A stretch of 64,000 nucleotides of DNA from Dehalococcoidia bacterium (GTDB lineage: Bacteria; Chloroflexota; Dehalococcoidia; Lucifugimonadales; UBA3495), in contig OZ247428.1 of NCBI GenBank assembly GCA_965232845.1, forward strand, positions 1,565,543 to 1,629,542, read 5' to 3'. A program made the position numbers and the translations under genes. This document shows, in pieces, positions 9,635 to 63,738 of this stretch. Numbering within the stretch: the stretch's first letter is position 1; each line of letters begins with the position of its first letter. The notes beneath the pieces were generated by a model. That model made no database searches. It had not been told where the DNA came from and saw nothing but the letters and a program-made list of their open reading frames with translations.

Positions 9635-10894
9635 TTGAATAACTTGGCAACGGGACCCACTTCTCAGGCAAGTGTCTTGGCAAACGTCTTGGACGGCGCG
9701 CATGCAGCAACGCTTGACGCCAGCGAGTCGTTGGCTGCCAGTCGGGAATTGTCCGACGACGAAGCTTACCTGTTTGATGGTAAAGCCTGCCCGCCTGTAG
9801 AGGAACTGTGCGCCCAGGCCTCCCAGATGCGGGATAACGGAAAGGGGAAAATCGTTACCTTCTCCCCTAAAGTGTTCATACCTTTGACCCATCTGTGCCG
9901 GGATTTTTGCGGGTACTGCACTTTCCGGCACAGCCCCGAATCGGCGCCCTCTCTTTACATGACTCCCGAAGAGGTTCTGGAGGTTGCCAGGGCTGGGGAA
10001 CGACTCGGCTGCACCGAAGCCTTGTTCACCCTGGGAGAGAGGCCTGAGCAGAGGTATCCAGAGGCCAGGCAGTGGCTTTCCGACCGAGGCTACGCCACCA
10101 CACTGGAATACCTCACCGAAATGTGCCGGTTGGTAATGGAAGAGACGGACCTAATGCCCCATGCCAACCCGGGTACCATGAGCCGACGGGAGCTGGCGGC
10201 CCTGCAGCCTTTCAACCCGTCCATGGGACTGATGCTCGAAAGTACCAGTCCGCGCCTTTACCAAGAGGGCGGACCCCACGAATTTGCGCCCAGCAAGCGG
10301 CCCAGGGTGCGCTTGCGGACCATGGCGTTGGCCGGAGAATTGGGAATACCTTTCACCACCGGCCTCCTGATTGGGATCGGAGAGACTCGCCGGGAACGTA
10401 TCGACGCTTTCCTGGAAATTCGGTCCTTGCACCGCACCTACGGCCACATTCAGGAAGTCATCGTGCAGAATTTCCGGGCCAAGCCGGCCACACCCATGGA
10501 AGAGGCGGACGATGCATCGGCTGATGAATTGCTCTGGACCGTAGCTGTAGGCCGAATCTTGCTCGGGCCTGCCATGAACCTGCAGGTGCCACCCAATTTG
10601 AGCGCAAGTGACTATCCAGCCTATCTCGACGCAGGAATTAACGATTGGGGCGGCGTATCCCCCCTGACCATCGACTTTGTTAATCCCGAAGCTCCCTGGC
10701 CGGCCCTGCCGGACTTGCAGCGGAATTCCACCGACAAGGGATTTGAACTAAAGCCTCGCCTGCCCGTTTACCCAGAATACTTCATGGGCGCAAGGCAATG
10801 GCTGCCCGAACCCCTTCGAGCCAAGGCGACTTCCCTGGCCGACGAGGACGGTTACGTTAAAGGAGGAATGGAGCGGTATGCCGGAAGAAACTGA
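9635..10894 (+). CDS. cofG: 7,8-didemethyl-8-hydroxy-5-deazariboflavin (FO) synthase subunit CofG, radical SAM
   Basis: Has the CRDFCGYC CxxxCxxC cluster motif after VTFSPKVFIPLT. Followed by cofH with a 17-nt overlap. The start is uncertain (TTG at 9635). Confidence 0.88.
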   Translation: MNNLATGPTSQASVLANVLDGAHAATLDASESLAASRELSDDEAYLFDGKACPPVEELCAQASQMRDNGKGKIVTFSPKVFIPLTHLCRDFCGYCTFRHSPESAPSLYMTPEEVLEVARAGERLGCTEALFTLGERPEQRYPEARQWLSDRGYATTLEYLTEMCRLVMEETDLMPHANPGTMSRRELAALQPFNPSMGLMLESTSPRLYQEGGPHEFAPSKRPRVRLRTMALAGELGIPFTTGLLIGIGETRRERIDAFLEIRSLHRTYGHIQEVIVQNFRAKPATPMEEADDASADELLWTVAVGRILLGPAMNLQVPPNLSASDYPAYLDAGINDWGGVSPLTIDFVNPEAPWPALPDLQRNSTDKGFELKPRLPVYPEYFMGARQWLPEPLRAKATSLADEDGYVKGGMERYAGRN

Positions 10895-12206
10895 TAGCAA
10901 CACCGCCGAGACCACCGCTGCCAACGGCCTGTCGGGCCTGATTGGCCAGCTTGAACCGGAGGTCGCCCACATCCTGGACAACGCCTTGGAAGGCGGGGAC
11001 ATCAGCGTTGAAGACGCTGTCGCTTTGTTTGACACCACGGGCGCCGAGTTTGCCGCCCTGGGAATGGTGGCCGACGAACTCCGCCGCCGCACGGTAGGAG
11101 ACCTGGTTACCTACGTGGTTAACCGAAATATCAACTTTACGAACGTGTGCATAAAACGGTGCGGGTTCTGCGCCTTCAGCCGGGATTTCCGGGAAGAAGA
11201 GGGCTATTTCCTGCCTATTAACGAGATAGTTCGCCGCGCCAAAGAGGCCTGGGACTACGGCGCCACTGAGGTCTGCGTCCAGGCGGGCCTCCCTCCCCAG
11301 ATGGAGGGCGACCTTTACATCAGGCTGTGCGAGGCCATCAAGGAAGAACTGCCCGACATGCACGTCCACGGGTTCTCGCCCGAAGAGGTGCTCTACGGCT
11401 CGGTGCGCTCCCGCTGCACCATCCGTGAGTACTTGGAAGGCCTGCGGGATGCCGGGGTAGGCAGCCTGCCGGGAACCTCGGCAGAAGTTCTCGACCAGGA
11501 ATTGCGAGACCTGATTTCCCCGGGGCGCATCAATGTCGAGCAGTGGAAGGAGGTCATATCGACCGCCCACGAACTTGGTATCCCAACGACTTCCACGGTG
11601 ATGTTCGGCCACGTTGAGACAAACGAACAAATCGCGCGCCACATCGCGCTCCTCAGGGACATGCAGAAGGAAACCGGAGGCTTTACCGAGTTCGTTCCCC
11701 TAAGCTTCGTCAACTCCGAAGCACCAATGTTTTTGAAGGGGCTGGTCGAGGACGTTCGTTCCGGGCCCACGGGTATGGATGTCATAAAAGTGCATGCCAT
11801 TGCCCGTATTATGCTGAACAACTGGATTCCCAACATCCAGGCTTCGTGGGTCAAGGAAGGGAGCCGGATGTCCCAGCTACTCCTGACGACCGGGGTCAAC
11901 GACTTGGGAGGCACCCTCATCAACGAGAGCATTTCTACCTCAGCCGGCGCCCAGCACGGGCAGTTGATGCGCCCTTCCGAATTTCGCCAGATGATTCGCC
12001 AGGCAGGGCGTGTCCCCGCCGAACGTTACACGACCTACGGACTGAAACGCATATACGACCAGGATGATGGACAGGTCGACCCACTTGACCTGGTGGGCGA
12101 TAACGTCGAGGAAATCTTTGGTTCCTACCAACGGTTGGTCAAGCTGGAGACCTACCGGTTCGAGCACCCTCGCCATGCCGCCAATTCGGGCGCTGACACG
12201 CGCTAG
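10878..12206 (+). CDS. cofH: FO synthase subunit CofH, radical SAM
   Basis: 442 aa. The CIKRCGFC radical-SAM motif follows VVNRNINFTNV. Adjacent to cofG and cofD. Confidence 0.9.
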   Translation: MPEETDSNTAETTAANGLSGLIGQLEPEVAHILDNALEGGDISVEDAVALFDTTGAEFAALGMVADELRRRTVGDLVTYVVNRNINFTNVCIKRCGFCAFSRDFREEEGYFLPINEIVRRAKEAWDYGATEVCVQAGLPPQMEGDLYIRLCEAIKEELPDMHVHGFSPEEVLYGSVRSRCTIREYLEGLRDAGVGSLPGTSAEVLDQELRDLISPGRINVEQWKEVISTAHELGIPTTSTVMFGHVETNEQIARHIALLRDMQKETGGFTEFVPLSFVNSEAPMFLKGLVEDVRSGPTGMDVIKVHAIARIMLNNWIPNIQASWVKEGSRMSQLLLTTGVNDLGGTLINESISTSAGAQHGQLMRPSEFRQMIRQAGRVPAERYTTYGLKRIYDQDDGQVDPLDLVGDNVEEIFGSYQRLVKLETYRFEHPRHAANSGADTR

Positions 12207-12227
12207 TTTGTCGGGCTAACCGTCAGT

Positions 12228-13196
12228 ATGTCGCAGTACCAGGGAAACGTACTGGCGCTGGCAGGAGGGGTCGGCGGCGCCAAGCTGGCATTGGGTCTCT
12301 CCCGAATCCTGCCCCCGGACCAGCTAACCATCGTCGTCAACACCGGCGACGACGAGACCTTCCACGGATTGCACGTATCCCCCGATATGGACACGATGTT
12401 ATATACTTTAGCCGGTATTTCCAATCCGGAAACCGGTTGGGGCATCGCGGGCGAGACTTTCCATGCCCTTGGTATGCTAACCAGATATGGTTCCGATACC
12501 TGGTTCAATTTGGGCGACCGGGACCTGGGTACTCACATCAGGAGAACCCAATTGCTGCGGGAAGGGGCATCCCTCTCCGAGGTAACCCGGGAACTCTGCC
12601 AACGCCTGGAGGTCGCTCATCCGATAGTGCCAATGTCTGAGTTGCCGGTCCGGACCTTCCTGAAAACCGACCTTGGCGAATTAGCAATGCAGGAATATTT
12701 CGTCCGGCACCGCAGCGAACCGTCGGTCAGCGGGGTAACCTACCGTGGAGCGGACCAGGCTGGTCCATCAGACGGGTTCGCGAGCGCCCTGGAAAAGGCC
12801 GACCTCGTAGTCATGTGCCCCTCGAACCCCGTGCTGAGCACCGGACCTATCCTGGCCTTGCGGGGTGTTAGGGAAAGGCTGGCAAGAAAGGAAGAAAGCC
12901 GGAAACGCGTGGCAGTAAGTCCTATTATCGGCGGACAGGCGGTGCGTGGTCCCGCAGCCAAGATCATGACAGAATTGGGCTACGAAGCAACTTGCCTGGG
13001 GGTTGCAGGACTTTACCAGGACATCTGCGACGTGTTCCTGATCGATGAACAGGATAAAGGCTTAATTCCTTCCATCGGTGGACTTGGCATGGAACCGGTG
13101 GTGGCTCCGATACTGATGGAAACGGAAGAGGACAAGGTGGCCCTGGCGAGACTCATCCTGGAACTGGGAGGAAGCTCTCAATATGATGGTGGATGA
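12228..13196 (+). CDS. cofD: 2-phospho-L-lactate transferase CofD
   Basis: 322 aa with ALAGGVGGAKLALGL...VVNTGDD...HGL..SPDLDT-like motifs. Confidence 0.88.
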   Translation: MSQYQGNVLALAGGVGGAKLALGLSRILPPDQLTIVVNTGDDETFHGLHVSPDMDTMLYTLAGISNPETGWGIAGETFHALGMLTRYGSDTWFNLGDRDLGTHIRRTQLLREGASLSEVTRELCQRLEVAHPIVPMSELPVRTFLKTDLGELAMQEYFVRHRSEPSVSGVTYRGADQAGPSDGFASALEKADLVVMCPSNPVLSTGPILALRGVRERLARKEESRKRVAVSPIIGGQAVRGPAAKIMTELGYEATCLGVAGLYQDICDVFLIDEQDKGLIPSIGGLGMEPVVAPILMETEEDKVALARLILELGGSSQYDGG

Positions 13197-13908
13197 AAAC
13201 AGCATCATTCCTATAATACCTATGAAACCCCTCGCCGACTGCAAGACGCGCCTTTCGCGCACTTTGACCGCAGAGGAAAGGGGCGACCTGGTTATAGGAA
13301 TGCTTCGCCGGGTTATCATGGCTATCAAAGGTGCCTCAATCGACGTTTTCTGGGTGGTTGGCGGAGACTGGCGAGTTCGCAACCTGACCCGCAATTTCGA
13401 CGGCCTCTGGATTGAAGACTTTGGTCGTAACCTGAACGACACGTTGGACAAGTCCTTTGACCGGGCCTCCCAGCGGGGCTATGGATCCATGTACGTGCCC
13501 GGCGACCTGCCCTTTCTTAAGGCGGCAGATATCACCAGCATGATCCGTTCCGCTGGCCAGGGCAGAAATATTGTCCTCGCACCGGCACGGCGGGACAGCG
13601 GGACCAACAGCATCCTGATTCCCCCCAAGCTCGCCTTCAAACCGGAACTGGGAAACCGAAGCTTCACCAAGCATCTCAGCCAGGCGGGGAAGCTGGGTAT
13701 TTCCGTGGCAATTTGTTACAGCGAAGGATTAGGATTTGACCTGGATATAACCGAAGACCTGGAGTTGTTCCAACAAAAAGAGCCGGGCTTTCTGGAACGC
13801 TTGACTCCCCGCAAGTCTTCGCTCGCGACAGGCGACCTACCCGCTATGCGAGATAATGGTGGCCTGACCAATTTGAGAGAACAAGATGACTTCCTCCGCA
13901 ATCGATAA
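13183..13908 (+). CDS. cofC: 2-phospho-L-lactate (or PEP) guanylyltransferase CofC
   Basis: 241 aa with IIPIIPMKPLADCKTRLS...PGDLPFL motifs. Overlaps the cofD stop by 14 nt. Confidence 0.75.
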   Translation: MMVDENSIIPIIPMKPLADCKTRLSRTLTAEERGDLVIGMLRRVIMAIKGASIDVFWVVGGDWRVRNLTRNFDGLWIEDFGRNLNDTLDKSFDRASQRGYGSMYVPGDLPFLKAADITSMIRSAGQGRNIVLAPARRDSGTNSILIPPKLAFKPELGNRSFTKHLSQAGKLGISVAICYSEGLGFDLDITEDLELFQQKEPGFLERLTPRKSSLATGDLPAMRDNGGLTNLREQDDFLRNR

Positions 13909-13965
13909 CTCCCTTCTTGATCTCTTCCAATCGCCCCGCTCGGCTCTAACGGAGGCTTACCTCGT

Positions 13966-14919
13966 ATGAAACTGGGCTTTCTGTTGCCCACCCGCGGCTT
14001 GCTGCTGTCCGAAGATCGGCCACAAAGCGCCGACCGCATAATCGATCTGGCCTGCCGGGCTGAGGAGGCCGGCCTGGATTCCGTCTGGGTAGGCGACAGC
14101 CTTACGGCAAAGCCTCGCCTAGAGCCCCTGACCGCCCTCGCCGCAGTGGCTGCCCGCACCAGTCGCGTACGACTGGGAACGTCGGTGCTGCTAATGGCCC
14201 TGCGCCATCCGGTGCTCCTGGCCCAAACCCTGGGAACGGTCGACCTGATTTCCAAGGGTAGGCTGATGATAGCTGCCGGTGTAGGCGGGGCCTTCAACGA
14301 AGATCAGCAGGCGGAATGGAGGAGTGCCGGGGTATCGGTTAGGCGCCGGGCCAGCCGAATGGAGGAAATGGTCCAGATAATAAAGGGCCTGGGCCGGGGA
14401 GAAACCATAAACTTCAGCGGCAGGCACTTCGACCTCGAGTCTGTCACGGTCAAGCCCTGGCCCGTTCAGGAGGGAGGCGTACCCATTTACCTGGCATGCC
14501 ACTGGCGAGCGCAGGCACGGGATGCCCAGATAAAGCGCGCTGCCAGGCTCGCTGACGGCCTGATTTCCATTTCAGACACTCCTGAAGAACACGCCAGGCT
14601 TATTGAGGCAGTAAGGGCCGAAGCTGTCGAACTGGGACGTGAACCCGATTCCCTGGACACAGTAATGTATATGACCGTTAACATGGATTCGGATCTCGCC
14701 CGGGCGGAAGCAGAGTCCGAACGGTACCTGCTGGGGTATTACGGCGCCGAAATCTGGGGCGACCGTTGGGGTCCCTTCGGCGGACCCGAGCGGGTCAAGG
14801 AACGGATAGCAGAATATATGGAAGCCGGGGCGGGAACGGTTGTGGTGCGGTTCGCTTCATTCGAACCGGAACAGCAAATGAGCACGTTCCTGGAAAGAGT
14901 GGCGCCCGAGTTTATATAG
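13966..14919 (+). CDS. LLM-class (luciferase-like) F420-dependent oxidoreductase
   Basis: 317 aa with MKLGFLLPTRG...DSVWVGDSL...RLGTSVLL... Sits directly after the cof genes. Confidence 0.75.
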   Translation: MKLGFLLPTRGLLLSEDRPQSADRIIDLACRAEEAGLDSVWVGDSLTAKPRLEPLTALAAVAARTSRVRLGTSVLLMALRHPVLLAQTLGTVDLISKGRLMIAAGVGGAFNEDQQAEWRSAGVSVRRRASRMEEMVQIIKGLGRGETINFSGRHFDLESVTVKPWPVQEGGVPIYLACHWRAQARDAQIKRAARLADGLISISDTPEEHARLIEAVRAEAVELGREPDSLDTVMYMTVNMDSDLARAEAESERYLLGYYGAEIWGDRWGPFGGPERVKERIAEYMEAGAGTVVVRFASFEPEQQMSTFLERVAPEFI

Positions 14920-16982: not shown

Positions 16983-17299
16983 ATCCACTAGCTTCGAGAG
17001 CACACCTTGGGTCAACCTGACGTGAAGAGGTATGAAATTTGTTGACTCTCTGTAAAGAATATACACTGAACAGAAAGGGTAGACAATGGCTTAAGGCCCA
17101 TGGAGGTTCAATCTAACCTTTGGAATGCGCCAGGTACCTCGAGTTCTGTTTGACCCAAAGGTACAATGTTGCTATAATTCCGCACTGCCAAAACCCCTTT
17201 GAAAGACCCTCAAGTTGAGCACGACTCAAAGCTGAGACACCACTCTATAACACCCGGACAAGAAACTTTCGGTGGCTACGCCATAAGGAGATTAGAGTT

Positions 17300-18472
17300 A
17301 TGAAACTCACCATTTCTGTATTGAAGGCCGACGTTGGCTCGATTGGTGGACATACCAAACCCTCCCGGAGGATGATTGACGCCACAGAACAGGCAGTGGC
17401 CGACGCCATCAGCAGCGGCCTGTTGATTGACGGTTACGTCGGTCATACCGGCGACGATATCTGCATGACCACCACCCATACTCGCGGCCCCAATGACACC
17501 GAAGTGCACCAGTTTGCGTGGACTACCTTCCTCAAGGCTACCGACATCGCCAGGGAGTACGGCCTTTACGGCGCAGGTCAGGACCTGCTCGCTGATGCCC
17601 CCTCGGGCAATATTCGCGGCGCCGGACCGGCGGTGGCCGAGGTGGAGTTCGATCACGATCCGATTAAGACCAACCCGGTCCGACCGGCAGAATCTTTCTT
17701 TGTACTGGCCGCGGACAAGTGCGGCCCGGGCGCATACAACCTGCCCATGTTCCTTGGCTTTGCTGACCCCATGTATTGTGGCGGCCTGATGCTGCCTCGC
17801 CTGAACCAGGGCTTCACTTTCAATGTTATTGACATGGACAACACCGAGGGAGACAGCATTATTTCCCTCAACGCTCCGGAAGACTACTACAAGTTGGCCG
17901 TTCTGCTCCGCGACAACGAGCGGTTTGGAATCGACTCCATCGTATCCCGTTACTCCGGCGAGATGGCCGCGGCCATTTCTGCCACCCGCCTGCACAATAT
18001 CGCCGGCAGCTACACCGGAAAGGACGATCCGGTTGCGGTTGTGCGGAACCAGGGAATCTTCCCGGCGCCGGAAGAACTGACTTCTCCCTACGCAAAGGCC
18101 CACTTCATTGGCGGTGATGCCCGCGGGTCCCACGTAATGCCGCTGATGCCGGTGCCGATAAACACAGCGGTTACTGGCATGTACTGTTTGCCGCTGGTTT
18201 CCTGCGTTGGCTTCTCCATCGCAGCAGACGGCACATTCTCCGACTCCAACATCGACTTCTTCGACAACCAGTCGTGGGATCACGTGCGCTTGCTGGCCCA
18301 GCAAAAGGCCATTGAAATGCGCTCCCAGGGTTGGTCCGGCGCGGCCATGCTGCCCTACGGAGAGTTGGAATACTCCGGTTTCCGCCAGAGCATAGGCGAC
18401 CTGGTGGACCGGTTTGCCTTCCGCAACGGGCACGGCGCCGAGGTTCCGGAAAAGGCAACCGCCGACGACTAG
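17300..18472 (+). CDS. fbp: fructose-1,6-bisphosphate aldolase/phosphatase (class V, archaeal-type FBPase)
   Basis: 390 aa with MKLTISVLKADVGSIGGHTKPS...HTGDDI...THTRG...GLYGAGQDLL, characteristic of the bifunctional FBPA/P family. AAGGAGA Shine-Dalgarno upstream. Confidence 0.88.
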   Translation: MKLTISVLKADVGSIGGHTKPSRRMIDATEQAVADAISSGLLIDGYVGHTGDDICMTTTHTRGPNDTEVHQFAWTTFLKATDIAREYGLYGAGQDLLADAPSGNIRGAGPAVAEVEFDHDPIKTNPVRPAESFFVLAADKCGPGAYNLPMFLGFADPMYCGGLMLPRLNQGFTFNVIDMDNTEGDSIISLNAPEDYYKLAVLLRDNERFGIDSIVSRYSGEMAAAISATRLHNIAGSYTGKDDPVAVVRNQGIFPAPEELTSPYAKAHFIGGDARGSHVMPLMPVPINTAVTGMYCLPLVSCVGFSIAADGTFSDSNIDFFDNQSWDHVRLLAQQKAIEMRSQGWSGAAMLPYGELEYSGFRQSIGDLVDRFAFRNGHGAEVPEKATADD

Positions 18473-18507
18473 GCTTAAAGACACTCGGCGCTTCCTGGCA
18501 AACTAAT

Positions 18508-19896: not shown

Positions 19897-21684
19897 CTAT
19901 TCGGTAATCCGCAACGCCAGGTCCCGCAATTGCGAGTCATCCACCGGCGACGGCGCCCCGAACAAAAGGTCGGTTCCACTTTGGGTCTTTGGAAAGGCGA
20001 TTACGTCCCGTATGGAGTCCGCACCTGCCAGGATAGTGACCAAACGGTCTATGCCGGGAGCTATCCCTCCGTGGGGAGGCGCCCCGTATTCAAAAGCTTC
20101 AAGGATGTGGCCGAATCGCTCCTCCACCTGTTCCCTGCTATAGCCCAGTACGGCAAAGATCTTCTCCTGGAGTTCTCGGCGGTGGATTCGGATGCTGCCA
20201 CTGGCCAGTTCGGAACCGTTGCATACCAGGTCATAAGCCTTCGACTCGATGCCGCCCAGTTCCGGCCCGTCCAGCAGGTCTTCCTTGCCGTCGGCCGGTG
20301 AAGTGAATGGATGGTGAGAGGAATCCCACCTGTTATTGGCCTCGTCCCAGTCGAAGAGAGGGAATCCGGTAACAAATGCAAATGACAGGATGTCCTCGTC
20401 AATCAGCGCCAGCCTTTCGCCGAAATAGTTGCGCATGGAACTGAGCCACAGGTTGGCCCGGCTGGCAGACCCGGCCATCAACACTATCAGATCTCCCCCA
20501 GCAGCGCCCATTCGCTCGGCCAGGCGGCGGGACCATTCCACCGGCATTCTCAACCCTGGGGAAAGCAGAAAATTGTCTTCAGCCAAGTCCGACGGTGATC
20601 CTTCTCCCTGTAGGCGAACATGGCTCATGCCGGCTGCACCAAATTCCTTGGCCGCTTCTTCAAGCCGCCGCATGTCGGACCCGGTGTAGTGGCCCTGTCC
20701 CGGAGCGACGAACCCTTTGACTATGCCGCCCTGCTCGACTGTATTGAGGAATACCCTGAATTCAGTTTCTCCGGCCAGGTCGGTTACATCCGTCATTTCC
20801 AGGCCGAAACGCAGGTCAGGTTTGTCGCTGCCGTAGCGGGCCATCACCTCGTCGTAGGGCAAGCGAGGGAAGGGCTTTATGAGCTTCTTACCCGGGGTCA
20901 ACTTCTCGACCATTCCAGTGTAGAGTTCCTCGGTCAGACGGAGCACGTCTTCCTGGTCGACAAAGCTCATTTCCAGGTCTAGCTGGGTGAATTCGGGCTG
21001 GCGGTCGGCTCTCAGGTCTTCATCCCGGAAGCAGCGGGCAATCTGAAAGTACTTTTCCACTCCCGACACCATTAGCAGTTGCTTCAACTGCTGGGGTGAC
21101 TGGGGCAAGGCGTAAAAGTTGCCCTTTTGCATACGGCTCGGCACCAGGTAATCCCTGGCGCCTTCGGGGGTGCTCTTTATCAGGATGGGAGTCTCAATTT
21201 CGAGAAACCCACGTTCGTCGAGAAAGTCACGGATATACTTGACCACCTGGTGCCGCAAAATCAGATTCCGTTGCATCTGGGGCCGGCGCAAGTCCAGGTA
21301 GCGGTATCGGAGGCGCAAACCCTCATCCGCCTTAACGTCATCTTCTATGTAGAAGGGCGGCGTGAGGGAGGAATTCAGGACCGTCACCTCATCGGCCATA
21401 ACTTCCACCATCCCCGTAGGGAGCGACGGATTTTCCGACTCGGGTGGACGGCGGGTAACAACTCCCTTGACTTCTATAACCCACTCCGACCGAAGCTGCT
21501 CAGCCACCCGGTAAGCCTCGGGGGACAACTCAGGGCTGAACACTACCTGGACGATTCCGGACCTGTCTCTCAGGTCAACAAAAATGACGCCGCCGTGGTC
21601 GCGGCGACTGTCAACCCAACCTGCCAGGGTATGCCGGCAGTCAATCTGGTTTTCCGTAAGGTCGTTGCAACTTGCGCTCTTCAG
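19897..21684 (-). CDS. aspS: aspartate--tRNA ligase, probably initiating at a non-canonical CTG
   Basis: The ORF track starts at GTG 21543. The conserved N-terminal OB-fold sequence ([48 protein letters not shown]) is encoded in frame upstream with no ATG, GTG or TTG. CTG at 21684 is preceded by GGAGGA 5 nt upstream and gives a typical ~595 aa product. Confidence 0.85.
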
Positions 21685-53754: not shown

Positions 53755-54996
53755 TTGCTTTCCCGACGGTGCCTTTTCATGCTGATGGGAGCCTTGGCGC
53801 TCCTGCCCACTTACTTGTTTCTCGCCACAACCCAGGTATTATCCAATGAGCCAGTTGTTACCTTGCGTCTTTGCCGCGCGTTTGTTACTCCCTGCCAGCA
53901 GGAAGTAAACCTGCCTGTCGGCGGGGAAGTGGCTCTGGCCCTCCGCTTAGACTCCCCTGATTCCCCTGCGCCCGCACAACCCTTGTCTTTGGTCGCCTGG
54001 TACCTGAAGGTGCTCTTCCTTGAAGACGAAGCTGTCGAAATCTCAACCCTTCGCTCGGCAGGCAGGCCCTTCCAGGAACGGGGTTCCCCTGACTTGGTCC
54101 TTAATGATGTCAGGTCTCTCCATGAACCACCACCTCGGTCGTCCAGCGAAAGTTTGGGATATTACCGCATAAGTAACGGTTACGAGCATGGCACAAGAAC
54201 GGCGGAATATGGGGTTACTGTGGTAGCTTTCGCTCCACGCGGACAAGCCGAGGCGGGTATCCGTTTACCAGAGGAAGGCAGCGTTTTGATCGGTAACATT
54301 AACCTAAGGGGGCTTAATGCCGGCACCACTCAACTGCTAGCCGGAGAATCAGCATCCCTTAGCCCCCAGGTCGTTCTCGCCGATGGCTCGAGTGGTTTGA
54401 GCCAGACCGAACTGGAAGTCGATGGTCCCCTGGCGGTGATAAATGTGGGGACCACGGCAGAGAAATCCCGCCTGCAAGGCCACGTTTGGTCAGACCTGCC
54501 GGCTGGCGAGGGCTCCTTTCATCCGTTCACTGGTACCTTCGACGTTCAATTCTGGCAGCCTGGTACCGTCCCAGTGTGGCAGGGAGGAACTGACCATCCC
54601 ACGGTGACCTTTACCAACCTGACCGCGGACGGCGAAGGCAACTACCACGTGCCCGACCTTACTCCCCAACTGCTTCCTGCTGGAAGTTACGATCTGCGAG
54701 CCAGGGGAGCGGGAACCCTTTCTATTATGGAGCGGGACGTGCATATTGATACCTCGGGAAGCAGCGGGCAGCCCTTGCCAATAACCATAATAGTGAACCT
54801 GGGGCCGCTGCCGTCCGGGGACCTAACTGGCGACAACAGGGTGAATGAAGAAGATTTGACCCTTCTTAAATCGAACTTCGGAAGCCTGGCAAGTCGCAGC
54901 GATGCCGTGGCAACAGGAGACATCAACAATGACGGGATAGTGGACGGCCAGGACTTTTCCCTCATGGCTGCCAACTTCAGGAAGCAAGGGGAGTAA
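53755..54996 (+). CDS. secreted hypothetical protein with C-terminal dockerin-type repeats
   Basis: 413 aa with an N-terminal hydrophobic signal-like segment. The C-terminus has two Ca-binding dockerin-like repeats, GDLTGDNRVNEEDLTLLKSNF and GDINNDGIVDGQDFSLMAANF. Confidence 0.6.
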   Translation: MLSRRCLFMLMGALALLPTYLFLATTQVLSNEPVVTLRLCRAFVTPCQQEVNLPVGGEVALALRLDSPDSPAPAQPLSLVAWYLKVLFLEDEAVEISTLRSAGRPFQERGSPDLVLNDVRSLHEPPPRSSSESLGYYRISNGYEHGTRTAEYGVTVVAFAPRGQAEAGIRLPEEGSVLIGNINLRGLNAGTTQLLAGESASLSPQVVLADGSSGLSQTELEVDGPLAVINVGTTAEKSRLQGHVWSDLPAGEGSFHPFTGTFDVQFWQPGTVPVWQGGTDHPTVTFTNLTADGEGNYHVPDLTPQLLPAGSYDLRARGAGTLSIMERDVHIDTSGSSGQPLPITIIVNLGPLPSGDLTGDNRVNEEDLTLLKSNFGSLASRSDAVATGDINNDGIVDGQDFSLMAANFRKQGE

Positions 54997-60133: not shown

Positions 60134-60502
60134 ATGCTTGAATCAGCAAACCGCTATGCCGTTGCCAGCCAGGAATTCATGACCAAGGCATACAAATACT
60201 TTGAAGAAGGTGATTTGGTACAGGCTTCAGAAAAGGGTTGGGGAGCCGCAGCATCAATGGTTAAAGCCGTTGCCGAGGAACGGGGCAGGCCGCATCGCCA
60301 CCACCGCCTGCTGTATGAAATTGTTGAGGACCTGGTGGAGGAAACAGGCGACGAGGAATTGTCTGTTATATTTGACCAGGCTTCCCGATTACATGCTAAC
60401 TATTACGAAAATTGGATGCGGCGACGTGCGGTGCGACGTTCATTGGCGGCCATAGAGCAATTCAGGGACAAGTTGGACCCGTTGCTGGCACAAGAACGGT
60501 AA
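60134..60502 (+). CDS. PaREP1/HEPN-like helical protein
   Basis: 122 aa. FEEGDLVQASEKGWGAAASMVKAVAEERG...HRHHRLLYEIV resembles the PaREP1 family. The call is tentative. Confidence 0.5.
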   Translation: MLESANRYAVASQEFMTKAYKYFEEGDLVQASEKGWGAAASMVKAVAEERGRPHRHHRLLYEIVEDLVEETGDEELSVIFDQASRLHANYYENWMRRRAVRRSLAAIEQFRDKLDPLLAQER

Positions 60503-60511
60503 GATAGGCCT

Positions 60512-60955
60512 CTACAGCTCCTTCAGCATCTCTATGTGAGGAATCCCTTCCTCCAGAAACACATCCCCTCTCTCCTTGTAACCATGCTCGGCATAAAAGG
60601 TCTTGACGTACTCCTGCGCGTGCAGCAGGCAATGGGTCAAGCCCTGGGCCTTGGCCTCCTCCTCCAGGCAATGGAGCACCTTTGCCCCCACCCCGTGGCG
60701 GCGCCAGTCTTTGTCCACCGCCATTCGGCCAATACGGCAGGTCCCTTCCTCATCGCCCTCCACTATTAGCATACGACCCGTGCCGATTATCTGGTCGCCA
60801 CATATGGCTACGGCATGGGTTGCGGTCGCATCGGCCTCGTCAAGCTCATTCTCGGCAGGGATCTGCTGCTCAACGACGAATACCCGCATTCGCACGTTGA
60901 TGGCGCCCTCCAACTCAGCTTCGGTTTCGACCAGTTTTGCTTCTATCTCTAACAC
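60512..60955 (-). CDS. GNAT-family N-acetyltransferase
   Basis: ORF track 60512..61009; GTG 60955 gives about 147 aa. Has the acetyl-CoA motif IGRMAVDKDWRRHGVGAKVL. Confidence 0.8.
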   Translation of the reverse strand: MLEIEAKLVETEAELEGAINVRMRVFVVEQQIPAENELDEADATATHAVAICGDQIIGTGRMLIVEGDEEGTCRIGRMAVDKDWRRHGVGAKVLHCLEEEAKAQGLTHCLLHAQEYVKTFYAEHGYKERGDVFLEEGIPHIEMLKEL

Positions 60956-61083
60956 TTGTGAGTTCCCCACTAACAAAGATAGACAGGACAAAGAGGCCAA
61001 GGCGCCCAATCATCCCGTCTATTTAAAGCTGTCTATGTAAGGCCTTCCACCTAAAGATTGATGCCGCCTGGCCGTTAGGACAG

Positions 61084-62283
61084 TTACCGTGCCAGGCCGT
61101 AGGCGACAGCCTTAAGGTTGGCATCCTCCGATTCGTTTAGGGTCGCGGCCACGCTGGCAATCAACTTGCCGCAAGCCGTGTCACCCCAGAACCAGCGGTG
61201 CAGAGCCTCCTCGTCTGCCCCCTTCTGCTGCTCCATCCTGGCTTCGTAATAGAAGGCTTTGAGGTCGTCGGCGCAGTACCGAATGAACTGGGCCCGGGAT
61301 ACCCCTTCCGGCCGCTCCGACATATCGGCATCGGCATCCCCTTCGGCGCAACCCTCAAGAAATCTGATCACGCCCCTGAAGCGTCGCTGGGGAACGCCAC
61401 ACAGACCCACTGCGGTTCTGCCGCCGTTATTGTCCAGCCAGCGTTCGTAAAAGGCCCTCAACGCTGTAACTTCGTCCGCGGCGCTTCGGGTAGCTGGCTC
61501 AACCTTGGTATCGACCTGCGACGCCTGAGGCATTATCGATGGAGCTGAATCATCGGGGAAATCTTCCAACACCGGCCCTGTAGCGGCCTTGAGAAGGTCG
61601 AATGCCGCCTCCAAAACCTGGTGTTGGTACTCCGCATCGTTGGGCCTTCCCAGGGCAAACCCGAAGAAGAAAGGTACGAACAGGGCCCTTGGCGGCTTTA
61701 CCTTCTCGGCATGCTCACGGACCATTGCGATGGTGGTTGTAGCTACTCCATGTTCTTCAATAACCCTGGACAGCACACTCACGGTGTGGGTGCAAAGGGG
61801 TCAAGTAGGGGTCAGGAGCGCCACGTCAACTCCCTCTTCCTTCAGCCACCGAGCCACCTCTGGTCCGGTTTCGTCAATTAGCTTGCTGGCATCACGCAGC
61901 GCGCCCATAAAGGAGTAGTAGTTAGCAGACAATTCACCAATCTTTCCTTGCTCTACCAACTCCCTAAGCCGGTCCACCGGAAATGTGACGTTCAAGTCCC
62001 GATAGATGCCGGTATGGTCGAAGCCTATGGAAAAGTGGCTTTGCACCACGTCCGCCGGGTTGGAGTCGCTGGGAATAACCCGGTAGGTGTACTCGCCGCC
62101 GGGATCATCGCGCGTGAATGGCTTGTCGCCGCGCAGGTGCAGGCCGGCCGAGGTAACCAGGGCAACCTTGCACTGGGACAATGGCTTAGACAATCCCACC
62201 CAGGGTGTGGATTCATGCTCCAGGCAAGGAAAAAACTCCAGTGTCCTGCGCTGTACTTCGCTCAGCGTTTCCAGTCTGGGCAT
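61084..62283 (-). CDS. GrdB/PrdB-family (glycine/sarcosine/betaine/D-proline reductase selenoprotein B-like) selenoprotein, UxxC motif (in-frame TGA at 61803-61801)
   Basis: ORF-track pieces 61801..62283 and 61084..61782 are in one frame. My readthrough gives ...FPVDRLRELVEQGKIGELSANYYSFMG...EEGVDVALLTPT-U-PLCTHTVSVLSRVIEEHGVATTTI... This parallels GrdB ...LRELEKEG.IG...AVILTST-U-GTC...IER.GIP. (from memory). GAGGAGG Shine-Dalgarno before ATG 62283. 399 codons in total. Confidence 0.75.
61764..61800 (-). promoter_or_regulatory. candidate bacterial SECIS hairpin for the GrdB-like gene
   Basis: On the coding strand directly after the UGA: CCCCUUUGCACCCACAC-CGUGA-GUGUGCUGUCCAGGG. The core stem CACAC/GUGUG (61774-61788) has a GU-containing loop, and an imperfect lower stem CCC.../...GGG extends it. 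Confidence 0.4.
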
Positions 62284-62403
62284 TAACGCCTCCTCATGAC
62301 CTGTTCGGACGATTCCCTGAATGTTGCGCCCCTATGGCACCCAGTATCCAAGAACTGAACGCCGGCAGGAGCACATTGCTAATCTTGATCGGCCAGTGGG
62401 CTC

Positions 62404-63498
62404 TTAGTTAAATACGATGGCGCCCCGGCCAACTTCTCCCTGGTCCATGTCGCCATAGGCCTCATTTATCTGGTCCAGAGAATAGTGACGGACCACCAGA
62501 TCGTCGAGGTTCAGCCGTCCCGACAGGTAAAGGTCAACCATGGTAGGCATATCCGTGCGACCCCGGGCCGAACCGTAGTAGGTACCCCGCAGGGTCTTCT
62601 CGTTTCGCACCAGGTCCACGGCATTGATGGGAGCCTCGGCGCCCATCGGGGCAATTCCCACCACCGTAACTGTCCCGCTCTTGGCACACATATCGTAGGA
62701 GGCTTTGACTGTTTCTGCCGAGCCGAACACCTCGAAGGTGTAGTCGGCGCCACGGCCACCTGTGAGTTCCTTGACCTGGGCAACAGGGTCCCGGTCTGCG
62801 GCATTTACCGAGTGGGTCGCGCCGAACTTCATCGCAAATTCAAGCTGGCTCTCGCGGATGTCCACCGCAATGATCTGCGAGGCGTTAAGTAGCTTGGCTC
62901 CCATAATTACGTTGAGTCCCACCCCGCCGCAGCCGACCACCGCGACGGTGCTGCCGGGCTGCACTTTGGCGCTGAACATGGTCGCCCCAACGCCCGTGGG
63001 AACACAACAGCCAATCATCGCCGCTTTGTCCATGGGAATGCCGGAGTTCGTGGGTATGCAGCCGGTTTCCGGTACCACCGCATACTCGGCAAAGCACGCT
63101 ACCTTGCCCATGTGGTGAATATCCCTGTCGCCCTTGTGGAGGCGGGTAGTGCCGTCCAGCATAAAGGGGCCCGTGGCCATGTGCAGATCGCACAGGTTGG
63201 AGTTTCCTTCCAGGCAGGACTTGCACCTGCCACACGCCGGGACAAAGGACAGAATTACCTGGTCGCCAGGCTTGGTCAGGGTAACGCCGGGCCCCACCTT
63301 CTCCACGGTTCCCGCTCCCTCGTGACCCAGCACGGCAGGCAGGGCGATGTTGGCATCACCATGCATAAAGTGCCGGTCGCTGCGGCAAACACCCGCTGCG
63401 CCAATCTTCACCAGCGCCTCACCGGCCTTGGGTTCGTCCAAGTCTACATCCTCAACCACCAAAGGTTGACCATATTCATACAAAACGGCAGCCTTCAA
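62404..63498 (-). CDS. zinc-dependent alcohol dehydrogenase (class III / medium-chain dehydrogenase family)
   Basis: ORF track 62404..63582. TTG 63498 (GGAGGG 6 nt upstream) gives LKAAVLYEYGQPLVVEDV... Has GVCRSDRH, GHEGAGTV, the structural-zinc CGRCKSCLEGNSNLC and the Rossmann motif VVGCGGVGL. Confidence 0.88.
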   Translation of the reverse strand: MKAAVLYEYGQPLVVEDVDLDEPKAGEALVKIGAAGVCRSDRHFMHGDANIALPAVLGHEGAGTVEKVGPGVTLTKPGDQVILSFVPACGRCKSCLEGNSNLCDLHMATGPFMLDGTTRLHKGDRDIHHMGKVACFAEYAVVPETGCIPTNSGIPMDKAAMIGCCVPTGVGATMFSAKVQPGSTVAVVGCGGVGLNVIMGAKLLNASQIIAVDIRESQLEFAMKFGATHSVNAADRDPVAQVKELTGGRGADYTFEVFGSAETVKASYDMCAKSGTVTVVGIAPMGAEAPINAVDLVRNEKTLRGTYYGSARGRTDMPTMVDLYLSGRLNLDDLVVRHYSLDQINEAYGDMDQGEVGRGAIVFN

Positions 63499-63738
63499 TT
63501 GCGGCCCTCCTGAATCTATTTGGTGTTTATCATCCGCATAAGCCTGCTGTATGTCAACCGCTGGAAATCTCCGGAGGCTCACACAGGCTGTTGGATTAAG
63601 GGTGTATCCGGACCCGTCGCATTAACCGATCGCTTGCCCTAATGTGGTAACTGGCAAAATGATGTAATATTCTTTCTGTCGAAAACACCTTGCAACTAGC
63701 CCCGTTGCGCTCGACCTACCCTCCGGAAGGAGTTCTGG

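Follow-up and report, generated by a model that had tools for sequence, protein, structure and literature searches.

The closest described relatives of the gene analysed here are PrdB, the 26-kDa subunit of D-proline reductase (EC 1.21.4.1, TIGR04483; for example, WP_081011614.1 of Terrisporobacter glycolicus), and the GrdB, GrdF and GrdH proteins of glycine, sarcosine and betaine reductases. Proline reductase is dithiol-dependent, NADH-linked rather than thioredoxin-linked, and has been described as 'compatible with ... lipoic acid' (PMC10298544). For the fluoroacetate reductase FarB/FarE of Cloacibacillus and for GrdI, a non-amine leaving group and a partner without a pyruvoyl group have been proposed (PMC10838667). 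PrdB is also a familiar name in marine selenoprotein surveys. In the Sargasso Sea data, it ranked third among selenoprotein families, with 42 selenocysteine (Sec) and 1 Cys forms (Zhang, Fomenko & Gladyshev 2005; PMC1088965); the GOS (Global Ocean Sampling) data held 235 Sec and 110 Cys forms (Zhang & Gladyshev 2008; PMC2398784). These two papers place 'PrdB' among the three to seven most abundant selenoprotein families of the surface ocean and list it as a known enzyme; neither mentions PrdA or a C-terminal extension, and later reviews list canonical PrdB only. We analysed a 64,000-nt stretch of DNA from a Dehalococcoidia bacterium (contig OZ247428.1, positions 1,565,543 to 1,629,542; 'the window' below), which carries a PrdB-like gene on the minus strand at 62283-61084. 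A sequence-only reading had taken this gene for a stand-alone GRDB/PrdB selenoprotein, and our analysis supported that reading. Comparison with its relatives places the gene in a distinct, widespread clade related to PrdB of D-proline reductase.

The gene is one frame of 399 sense codons followed by a TAA stop, and its sole interruption is TGA at 61803-61801 (codon 161). The two called open reading frames (ORFs) of 160 amino acids (62283-61801) and 232 amino acids (61782-61084) are thus parts of the same minus-strand frame, as had been proposed; the second was called from the first GTG (61782), seven codons past the TGA. The residues around the TGA read LLTPT-U-PLC-THT, a UxxC motif. Among the 45 same-frame TGA pairs in the window, this is the only one with a redox motif in a real gene. 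A purine run resembling a Shine-Dalgarno sequence precedes the ATG; on inspection of the sequence, no comparable run was seen before the internal GTG at 61782. The features of the gene, including the selenocysteine insertion sequence (SECIS), are as follows.

61084..62283, minus strand: complete selenoprotein gene (one frame; homologues with Cys are single proteins; the N-terminus MPRLxxL is conserved)
62289..62295, minus strand: Shine-Dalgarno-like GAGGAGG, 5 nt upstream of the ATG at 62283 (read from the sequence)
61801..61803, minus strand: UGA codon 161 for Sec, the proposed catalytic nucleophile (conserved column, aligned with the annotated Sec of canonical PrdB)
61792..61794, minus strand: TGC codon of Cys164, the resolving Cys of U-P-L-C (invariant in all clades, canonical PrdB included)
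61588..62205, minus strand: PrdB-like alpha/beta catalytic domain, residues 27-232, spanning the Sec codon (TIGR04483, PF07355)
61087..61578, minus strand: family-specific, mostly helical C-terminal domain, residues ~236-399 (seen in this clade only; AlphaFold2 model of a homologue)
61762..61802, minus strand: SECIS element (core stem 61788-61784/61778-61774; loop CGUGA at 61783-61779; weaker lower stem 61802-61798/61766-61762)

Codon, SECIS and neighbour counts were made on the window together with 170 related loci, which single-linkage clustering grouped into 41 lineages. At the Sec column, TGA was present in 161 of the 170 related loci and in the window; the other nine had Cys codons. In one set TGA occupied the column in 86 of 87 loci and in the other set in 75 of 84, the rest being TGC or TGT. 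The metagenome scan that supplied the latter set (L006 and L087-L169) was seeded with Cys forms and still returned mostly Sec forms (75 TGA, 5 TGC and 4 TGT). The residues P-L-C-T-H-T between the TGA and the next start codon are conserved, and the frame is preserved across the 161 loci, which come from several phyla.

One genome per GTDB species was scanned with a pattern; this gave 463 stretches encoding a relative, and the gene is not rare. TGA occupied the Sec column in all of the best 80 of these 463 stretches. The hosts include SAR202/Dehalococcoidia (with many metagenome-assembled genomes, MAGs, from sponges), Entotheonella/Tectimicrobiota, Rokubacteria/Methylomirabilota, Binatia, Terriglobia and Deferrimicrobiaceae. 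A search over 5.8 billion proteins gave 1650 matches. The nearest of them (60-87% identity) were all 229-232 amino acids long, which makes them second halves, cut at that very codon; every Sec member is called as a 160-residue 'GRDB' fragment plus a 'hypothetical protein' of ~230 residues (229-232). Among the matches were also 13 full-length proteins (380-399 amino acids, 44-50% identical) with Cys where the window has TGA, with the entire C-terminal region and with the motif TP[TS]-C-P[FVL]-C-T. The Cys forms are single proteins of 393-399 amino acids, and no homologue has the two halves as independently conserved genes, in agreement with the earlier expectation.

The hairpin that had been noticed directly after the UGA (CACAC/CGUGA/GUGUG) is present; its core stem begins 12 nt past the UGA, or 11 nt where an extra G-C pair forms. 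A spacing of 11-12 nt matches that of the minimal SECIS of E. coli fdhF. Folded on its own, the 62 nt after the UGA were no more stable than shuffled sequences (z = 0); since a single-sequence fold is insignificant, only comparative evidence counts for this element. All five core pairs form in 76 of 78 and in 74 of 75 TGA genes (150/153), and four of five in the remaining three. The nine genes with a Cys codon, which served as negative control, have two to four core pairs and never five. In an ungapped alignment of 76 distinct sequences, stem columns 22-26/32-36 are paired in essentially all, loop position G28 is invariant and two core pairs show compensatory changes (A-U to G-C in 18 sequences, C-G to A-U in three). 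The covariation score of 0.105, against 0.066 in shuffles, was reached by none of 500 shuffles and exceeded all slid controls. Taken comparatively, the hairpin is far beyond chance. The 3' arm encodes Val (GUG) in all Sec forms and mostly Ala in the Cys forms shown; RNA structure therefore constrains the protein sequence. An Rfam scan of the window reported no SECIS or other RNA family apart from two tRNAs. With TGA at the same column in 161 loci, Cys in the full-length homologues and a SECIS that tracks the TGA, the codon is no accident, and the comparative data support UGA161 as a Sec codon.

Three related loci should be mentioned separately. In L020, which comes from a Dehalococcoidia MAG belonging to the clade of the window, a selD homologue (20679-21197) follows the PrdB-like gene ~9.5 kb downstream. 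It shares 55% identity with SelD of Terrisporobacter over 173 amino acids (E = 9e-57), is truncated by the end of the locus and is the sole gene of the Sec machinery observed in the vicinity of any member. The gene most similar to that of the window (95% identity; L059:10001-11196 in the Dehalococcoidia MAG contig OZ244136.1) matches over 1196 nt. Its readthrough frame stops prematurely, after 249 amino acids, which suggests a frameshift or an assembly error in that record. A Sec-form (TGA) member on a 2.7-kb contig (L085, JAHRHA010000356.1) was binned to a Micromonosporaceae MAG, whereas the other relatives of the actinomycete type are Cys forms; given the short contig, this placement may be a binning error.

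We compared the readthrough protein with profile hidden Markov models of the known families. The PrdB model TIGR04483 matched residues 27-232 on model positions 19-219 of 238, straight across the UGA (E = 2e-48, 164.8 bits); the score falls short of the 300 bits set as the equivalog cut-off. Both halves thus fall into one GRDB-family alignment. The Pfam model PF07355 (GRDB) matched residues 33-160 and scored 46.8 bits on the full sequence and 50.1 on the N-terminal half (gathering threshold, 22); it covered only the last ~127 of its 347 positions. The NCBIfam models of GrdB, GrdF and GrdH gave 46.5, 54.4 and 51.5 bits against cut-offs of 602, 800 and 775, all within model positions ~220-409, and TIGR01918 ('various_sel_PB') gave 48.9 bits, also below its cut-off (65.45). 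Of the earlier assignment to a GrdB/PrdB family, the PrdB part stands (164.8 bits) and the GrdB part does not (46-54 bits): judged by these profiles, the protein is PrdB-like and not GrdB-like. With GrdB, GrdF and GrdH it shares the PF07355 superfamily and the nature of a UxxC selenoprotein; the GrdB N-terminal half is absent. That absence had been pointed out correctly, but it is normal for a PrdB-like protein, and the unusual part is an extra C-terminal domain.

Canonical PrdB and the window protein have in common an alpha/beta domain of ~205 residues, with 30-41% identity. Sec161 and Cys164 align with U-G-T-C of three annotated PrdB proteins (Terrisporobacter, Peptoclostridium and Ligilactobacillus), and in both groups a SECIS directly follows the UGA. 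The block upstream of Sec, earlier called family-typical, is so: FPVDRLRELV in the window protein (P102, D104 and R105 are invariant in the clade) corresponds to MFPIDRLHEL in canonical PrdB, i.e. a shared FPxDRL block. All clades have 13 invariant residues in common: D89, D96, P102, U/C161, C164, E176, G179, T182, P198, R199, G208, G212 and Q220. The two groups differ around Sec (U-P-x-C-T in the window family, U-G-T-C-H in canonical PrdB) and in their hosts, which are Chloroflexota, Tectimicrobiota, Methylomirabilota, Acidobacteriota and Actinomycetota for the former and Clostridia and Lactobacillales for the latter.

Annotated canonical prdB genes were taken from plasmid and chromid records; in a search of these records, canonical PrdB matched residues ~20-236 only (31-34% identity). 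Mean identity is 55% within the window family and 36% to canonical PrdB (range 30-41%). In a neighbour-joining tree of the shared domain, the window family, with Sec and Cys forms together, was recovered with 92% bootstrap support and canonical PrdB with 100%; a third group, of two sequences only, is an alphaproteobacterial type of ~302-308 amino acids annotated as 'selenoprotein B family' (Roseomonas WP_207415257.1 and Haematobacter WP_035710215.1). This type resembles the window family in being PrdA-less and in its C-P-[VI]-C motif; it is a separate clade at 33% identity, with an N-terminal extension and a tail of 54-59 residues instead of the 165-residue domain. The plasmid-borne alphaproteobacterial genes lie at L171:6890-7798 and L173:5887-6813, and the Roseomonas copy adjoins selO.

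Canonical PrdB stops 13-17 residues past the shared domain, where the window family always adds ~165, mostly helical, residues; the sequence-only reading had missed this extension. Residues R301, R303, R335, D340, E347, R349, W364 and the terminal R399 are invariant in it. Pfam gave no match to the domain in any of 15 members. We searched 1.84 billion representatives exhaustively with HMMER, using the C-terminal domain as query, and obtained 347 matches; all were post-UGA halves, full-length Cys forms or fragments, except three long multi-stretch proteins (1597-2212 amino acids), which we read as probable repeat or low-complexity matches. No free-standing copy was among the 347 matches, and the domain was found only behind a PrdB-like domain. 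As far as these searches reach, the predicted ~165-residue domain is confined to this clade and always fused to the catalytic domain. The possibility that it is a fused or degenerate PrdA was rejected, as hhalign against PrdA returned a probability of 0.1%.

An AlphaFold2 model was made for the Cys homologue P0053, which is 50% identical to the window protein. It shows one confident chain (predicted local distance difference test score 90.6, predicted template modelling score 0.91) with an alpha/beta N-terminal domain and helices at 266-393. Foldseek of this model against the PDB returned nothing at E <= 1e-3 (best TM ~0.28). A PDB sequence search found no solved relative, only an echo of the glutaredoxin active site in thioltransferase 1kte (E = 0.39).

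Partner genes of the described reductases were sought with tblastn in 2.28 Mb (the window and all 170 family loci), the queries being canonical PrdA, PrdC, PrdD, a PrdE-like protein and the small CBO2463 protein. None of these gave a match outside the canonical controls, in which PrdA lies directly upstream of prdB in three of three. A Pfam pass over the 64-kb window found no prdA, grdA, grdC/D/E, thioredoxin or thioredoxin reductase gene (GrdA/C/D queries were not run on the 170 loci), in line with the earlier remark that reductase partners are missing nearby; the sole thioredoxin-fold gene in the window encodes a DUF255 protein ~38 kb away. No proline racemase gene is nearby either. The neighbourhoods show no PrdA dependence as far as gene content can tell. 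Because PrdA/D/E or PrdC are beside none of the 170 members while PrdA adjoins prdB in all three controls, a complete prd or grd operon elsewhere in the genome is unlikely. In the control from Peptoclostridium acidaminophilum, the PrdA-like ORF directly upstream of prdB (L172:4666-5934; 47% identical to T. glycolicus PrdA over 423 amino acids) is missing from the PLSDB gene table.

The immediate neighbours of the window gene, found by Pfam, are those named earlier, both on the minus strand.

62404..63582, minus strand: Zn-dependent alcohol dehydrogenase (ADH), co-directional, 120 bp upstream (Pfam ADH_N and ADH_zinc_N)
60512..61009, minus strand: GNAT acetyltransferase, co-directional, 75 bp downstream (Pfam Acetyltransf_10/7/1)

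No terminator-like site was found between the ADH and the selenoprotein gene; the promoter and terminator scan itself performed at chance level and is uninformative. The suggested ADH/GNAT linkage is conserved within the window's own clade and not beyond it: the gene order, with the whole synteny block, is common only to this clade (targets at least ~72% identical), and a functional linkage was rejected, as the ADH is directly upstream there only.

Neighbour families were defined by homology clustering of all ORFs at the 170 loci. The Sec forms have catabolic neighbours, among them, with counts taken over the lineages of all 170 loci, SDR (9 of 41 lineages), luciferase-like monooxygenase (8/41), CoA-transferase III (6/41), FAH and amidohydrolase-2 (4/41 each); MR/MLE proteins were counted in 5/41, and VOC, MBL and TPP enzymes and HpcH aldolase follow, VOC and HpcH again beside Sec forms. 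MR/MLE was rejected as a shared neighbour: the window copy is ~27% identical to the actinobacterial cycloisomerases and is not orthologous to them. The Cys forms lie in LysR-controlled clusters with intradiol dioxygenase, Fe-ADH, MR/MLE, muconolactone isomerase, dienelactone hydrolase, Rieske oxygenase, thiolase and CoA-transferase. Of the six Cys lineages whose downstream flank could be read, four have a GcvH-like gene, its ESxKT lipoyl site intact, 12-37 bp downstream or one small ORF away. A GcvH-like partner for the Sec forms was rejected, as none was found at any Sec locus; the only gcvH in the window, 26 kb away, is part of a standard gcvT-H-PA-PB operon (33.8-38.3 kb).

Judged by the gene contexts, the substrate may come from organic-acid or aromatic degradation rather than from Stickland fermentation. 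As the main explanation, to which we give a probability of about 0.45, we propose that members of this PrdA-independent clade perform PrdB/GrdA-type chemistry on their own. The selenolate would attack the carbon alpha to the carboxyl or carbonyl in a small intermediate of catabolism, one with a leaving group that departs without Schiff-base activation. Cys164 would then resolve the selenoether to a selenenylsulfide with release of the reduced product, and a dithiol would re-reduce the Se-S bond. In the actinobacterial Cys-form relatives, a dedicated, lipoylated GcvH-like protein whose gene comes immediately after is the probable donor; a dithiol step agrees both with the proline reductase literature (PMC10298544) and with this neighbour. 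The C-terminal domain could be a substrate- or donor-binding cap, taking the role that PrdA has in the canonical enzyme. A precedent for GRDB-family Sec chemistry without pyruvoyl or Schiff-base activation may be seen in FarB/FarE and in betaine reductase GrdH/GrdI; those proteins, however, are full-length GrdB types that keep a GrdE/GrdI-type partner and feed GrdA/GrdC/D, none of which is present at the window gene. A more specific version would make the protein a self-sufficient Sec enzyme of one polypeptide, in which a novel cap domain is joined to the PrdB-like one and a lipoyl-protein or another dithiol restores the reduced state. The enzyme would reductively cleave either an acid with an alpha substituent or an intermediate of ring cleavage, and its hosts would be aerobic heterotrophs such as SAR202, sponge symbionts, Rokubacteria and soil actinomycetes; taken as a whole, this version is unlikely, and we put it forward as speculation.

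Several observations weigh against the proposed chemistry. No selenium machinery is encoded in the 64-kb window, whose only tRNAs are tRNA-Arg and tRNA-His. The C/U-P-x-C motif is reminiscent of the active site of glutaredoxins and would be just as compatible with a plain disulfide oxidoreductase. No neighbour family reaches more than 9 of the 41 lineages, and the catabolic theme, counted without a background model, may be due to chance; several of the recurrent families are expanded in SAR202 genomes. The GcvH-like gene is absent at every Sec locus, its link being limited to Cys forms of four lineages and to few loci. The cap function is a conjecture from a structure modelled on a homologue of 50% identity.

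The motif just mentioned is the starting point of the main rival, which we take to be rather unlikely: a Sec-dependent thiol-disulfide oxidoreductase with a glutaredoxin-like relay, in which U-P-x-C shuttles electrons and no carbon-selenium intermediate is formed. PT-C/U-P-[FLV]-C matches the glutaredoxin active site, thioltransferase 1kte was the sole echo in the PDB, selenoproteins of oxic marine bacteria are mostly redox proteins with UxxC/CxxU motifs (PMC1088965, PMC2398784), and the lipoyl-protein neighbour of the Cys forms would suit a lipoyl-directed oxidoreductase as well. Yet the thioredoxin and glutaredoxin matches all stay below significance (Thioredoxin_3 at E = 0.15 and MJ0307 thioredoxin at E = 0.042, both below cut-offs), and the fold search produced no thioredoxin-fold match. 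Homology to PrdB, moreover, extends over the whole 200-residue domain, with D89, D96, E176, R199 and Q220 among the 13 residues kept in all clades, and the neighbours are LysR-controlled catabolic enzymes, not stress or redox-homeostasis genes.

Nor does the gene look like an ordinary PrdB subunit of D-proline reductase with PrdA and the electron-transfer genes elsewhere in the genome, a very improbable explanation in our opinion. TIGR04483 is indeed its best family match, the JGI annotation calls relatives 'D-proline reductase (dithiol) PrdB', and the selenoproteome literature counts such genes as PrdB (PMC1088965, PMC2398784). This rival is opposed by a score far under the equivalog cut-off, the separate clade at 36% identity, the 165-residue domain that canonical PrdB lacks, and the occurrence of PrdA/D/E or PrdC at 0 of 170 loci, compared with PrdA immediately upstream at 3 of 3 canonical loci. 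SAR202, Entotheonella, Rokubacteria and soil actinomycetes, the lineages that host the clade, are not known to be Stickland fermenters. That there is no selenoprotein at all, the frame being two separate genes or a pseudogene produced by a nonsense mutation or sequencing error, has practically no chance of being right. Such a reading could draw on the split calls seen everywhere, on the insignificance of the hairpin in a single sequence and on the missing Sec machinery in the window. Comparative data have effectively refuted it already: TGA recurs at one column in 161 independent loci with the frame and P-L-C-T-H-T kept, full-length homologues have Cys in its place, the hairpin tracks TGA versus TGC/TGT almost perfectly, and the second half has no Shine-Dalgarno sequence of its own.

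Other observations were made in the window. An F420 biosynthesis cluster at 9635-14919 includes two radical-SAM CofG/CofH-like genes, CofD and CofC, followed by a luciferase-like monooxygenase that is possibly F420-dependent. At 17276-18484, two nearly coextensive ORFs lie on opposite strands (402 amino acids on the minus strand, 390 on the plus strand), the minus-strand one without a Pfam match. A 413-residue protein encoded at 53755-54996 (plus strand) ends in a dockerin type I domain (E = 6.5e-8) and is conserved in relatives (the L001 and L003 equivalents) beside MoaE and ThiS-like genes. A 122-residue protein of the 'archaeal' PaREP1/PaREP8 family (PF05942, E = 6e-23) is encoded in this bacterial Dehalococcoidia setting at 60134-60502 (plus strand), with conserved counterparts at the corresponding position of L001 and L002.

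Selenoproteins named 'PrdB' have appeared in marine catalogues since 2005, and the window gene is an ordinary member of a large uncharacterised clade. The catalogued proteins resemble this clade in pfam07355 and UxxC, in their abundance in oxic marine waters and in their Sec bias; the published sequences may be from this clade or from the shorter type found in Alphaproteobacteria. No account of a C-terminally extended clade without PrdA, or of the GcvH link, came up in the open-access literature. Our analysis adds that at least one large branch forms a clade of its own, in which the extra domain is obligatory and PrdA is missing from the gene neighbourhoods. The clade, which covers SAR202/Dehalococcoidia, Entotheonella, Rokubacteria, Acidobacteria and soil metagenomes, is probably mis-annotated, and the proline-reductase label is probably wrong for hundreds of species.

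The question of function is now testable, as natural Cys forms exist in named actinomycete genomes, e.g. Umezawaea, and can be expressed without Sec machinery. These forms carry a candidate electron donor, the GcvH-like lipoyl protein, and LysR-controlled aromatic-catabolic neighbours, which narrows the substrate search. If the more specific version given above is correct, Stickland-type carbon-selenium reduction would extend beyond anaerobic amino-acid fermenters, and this would account for the rank of 'PrdB' among the most abundant ocean selenoproteins since 2005.

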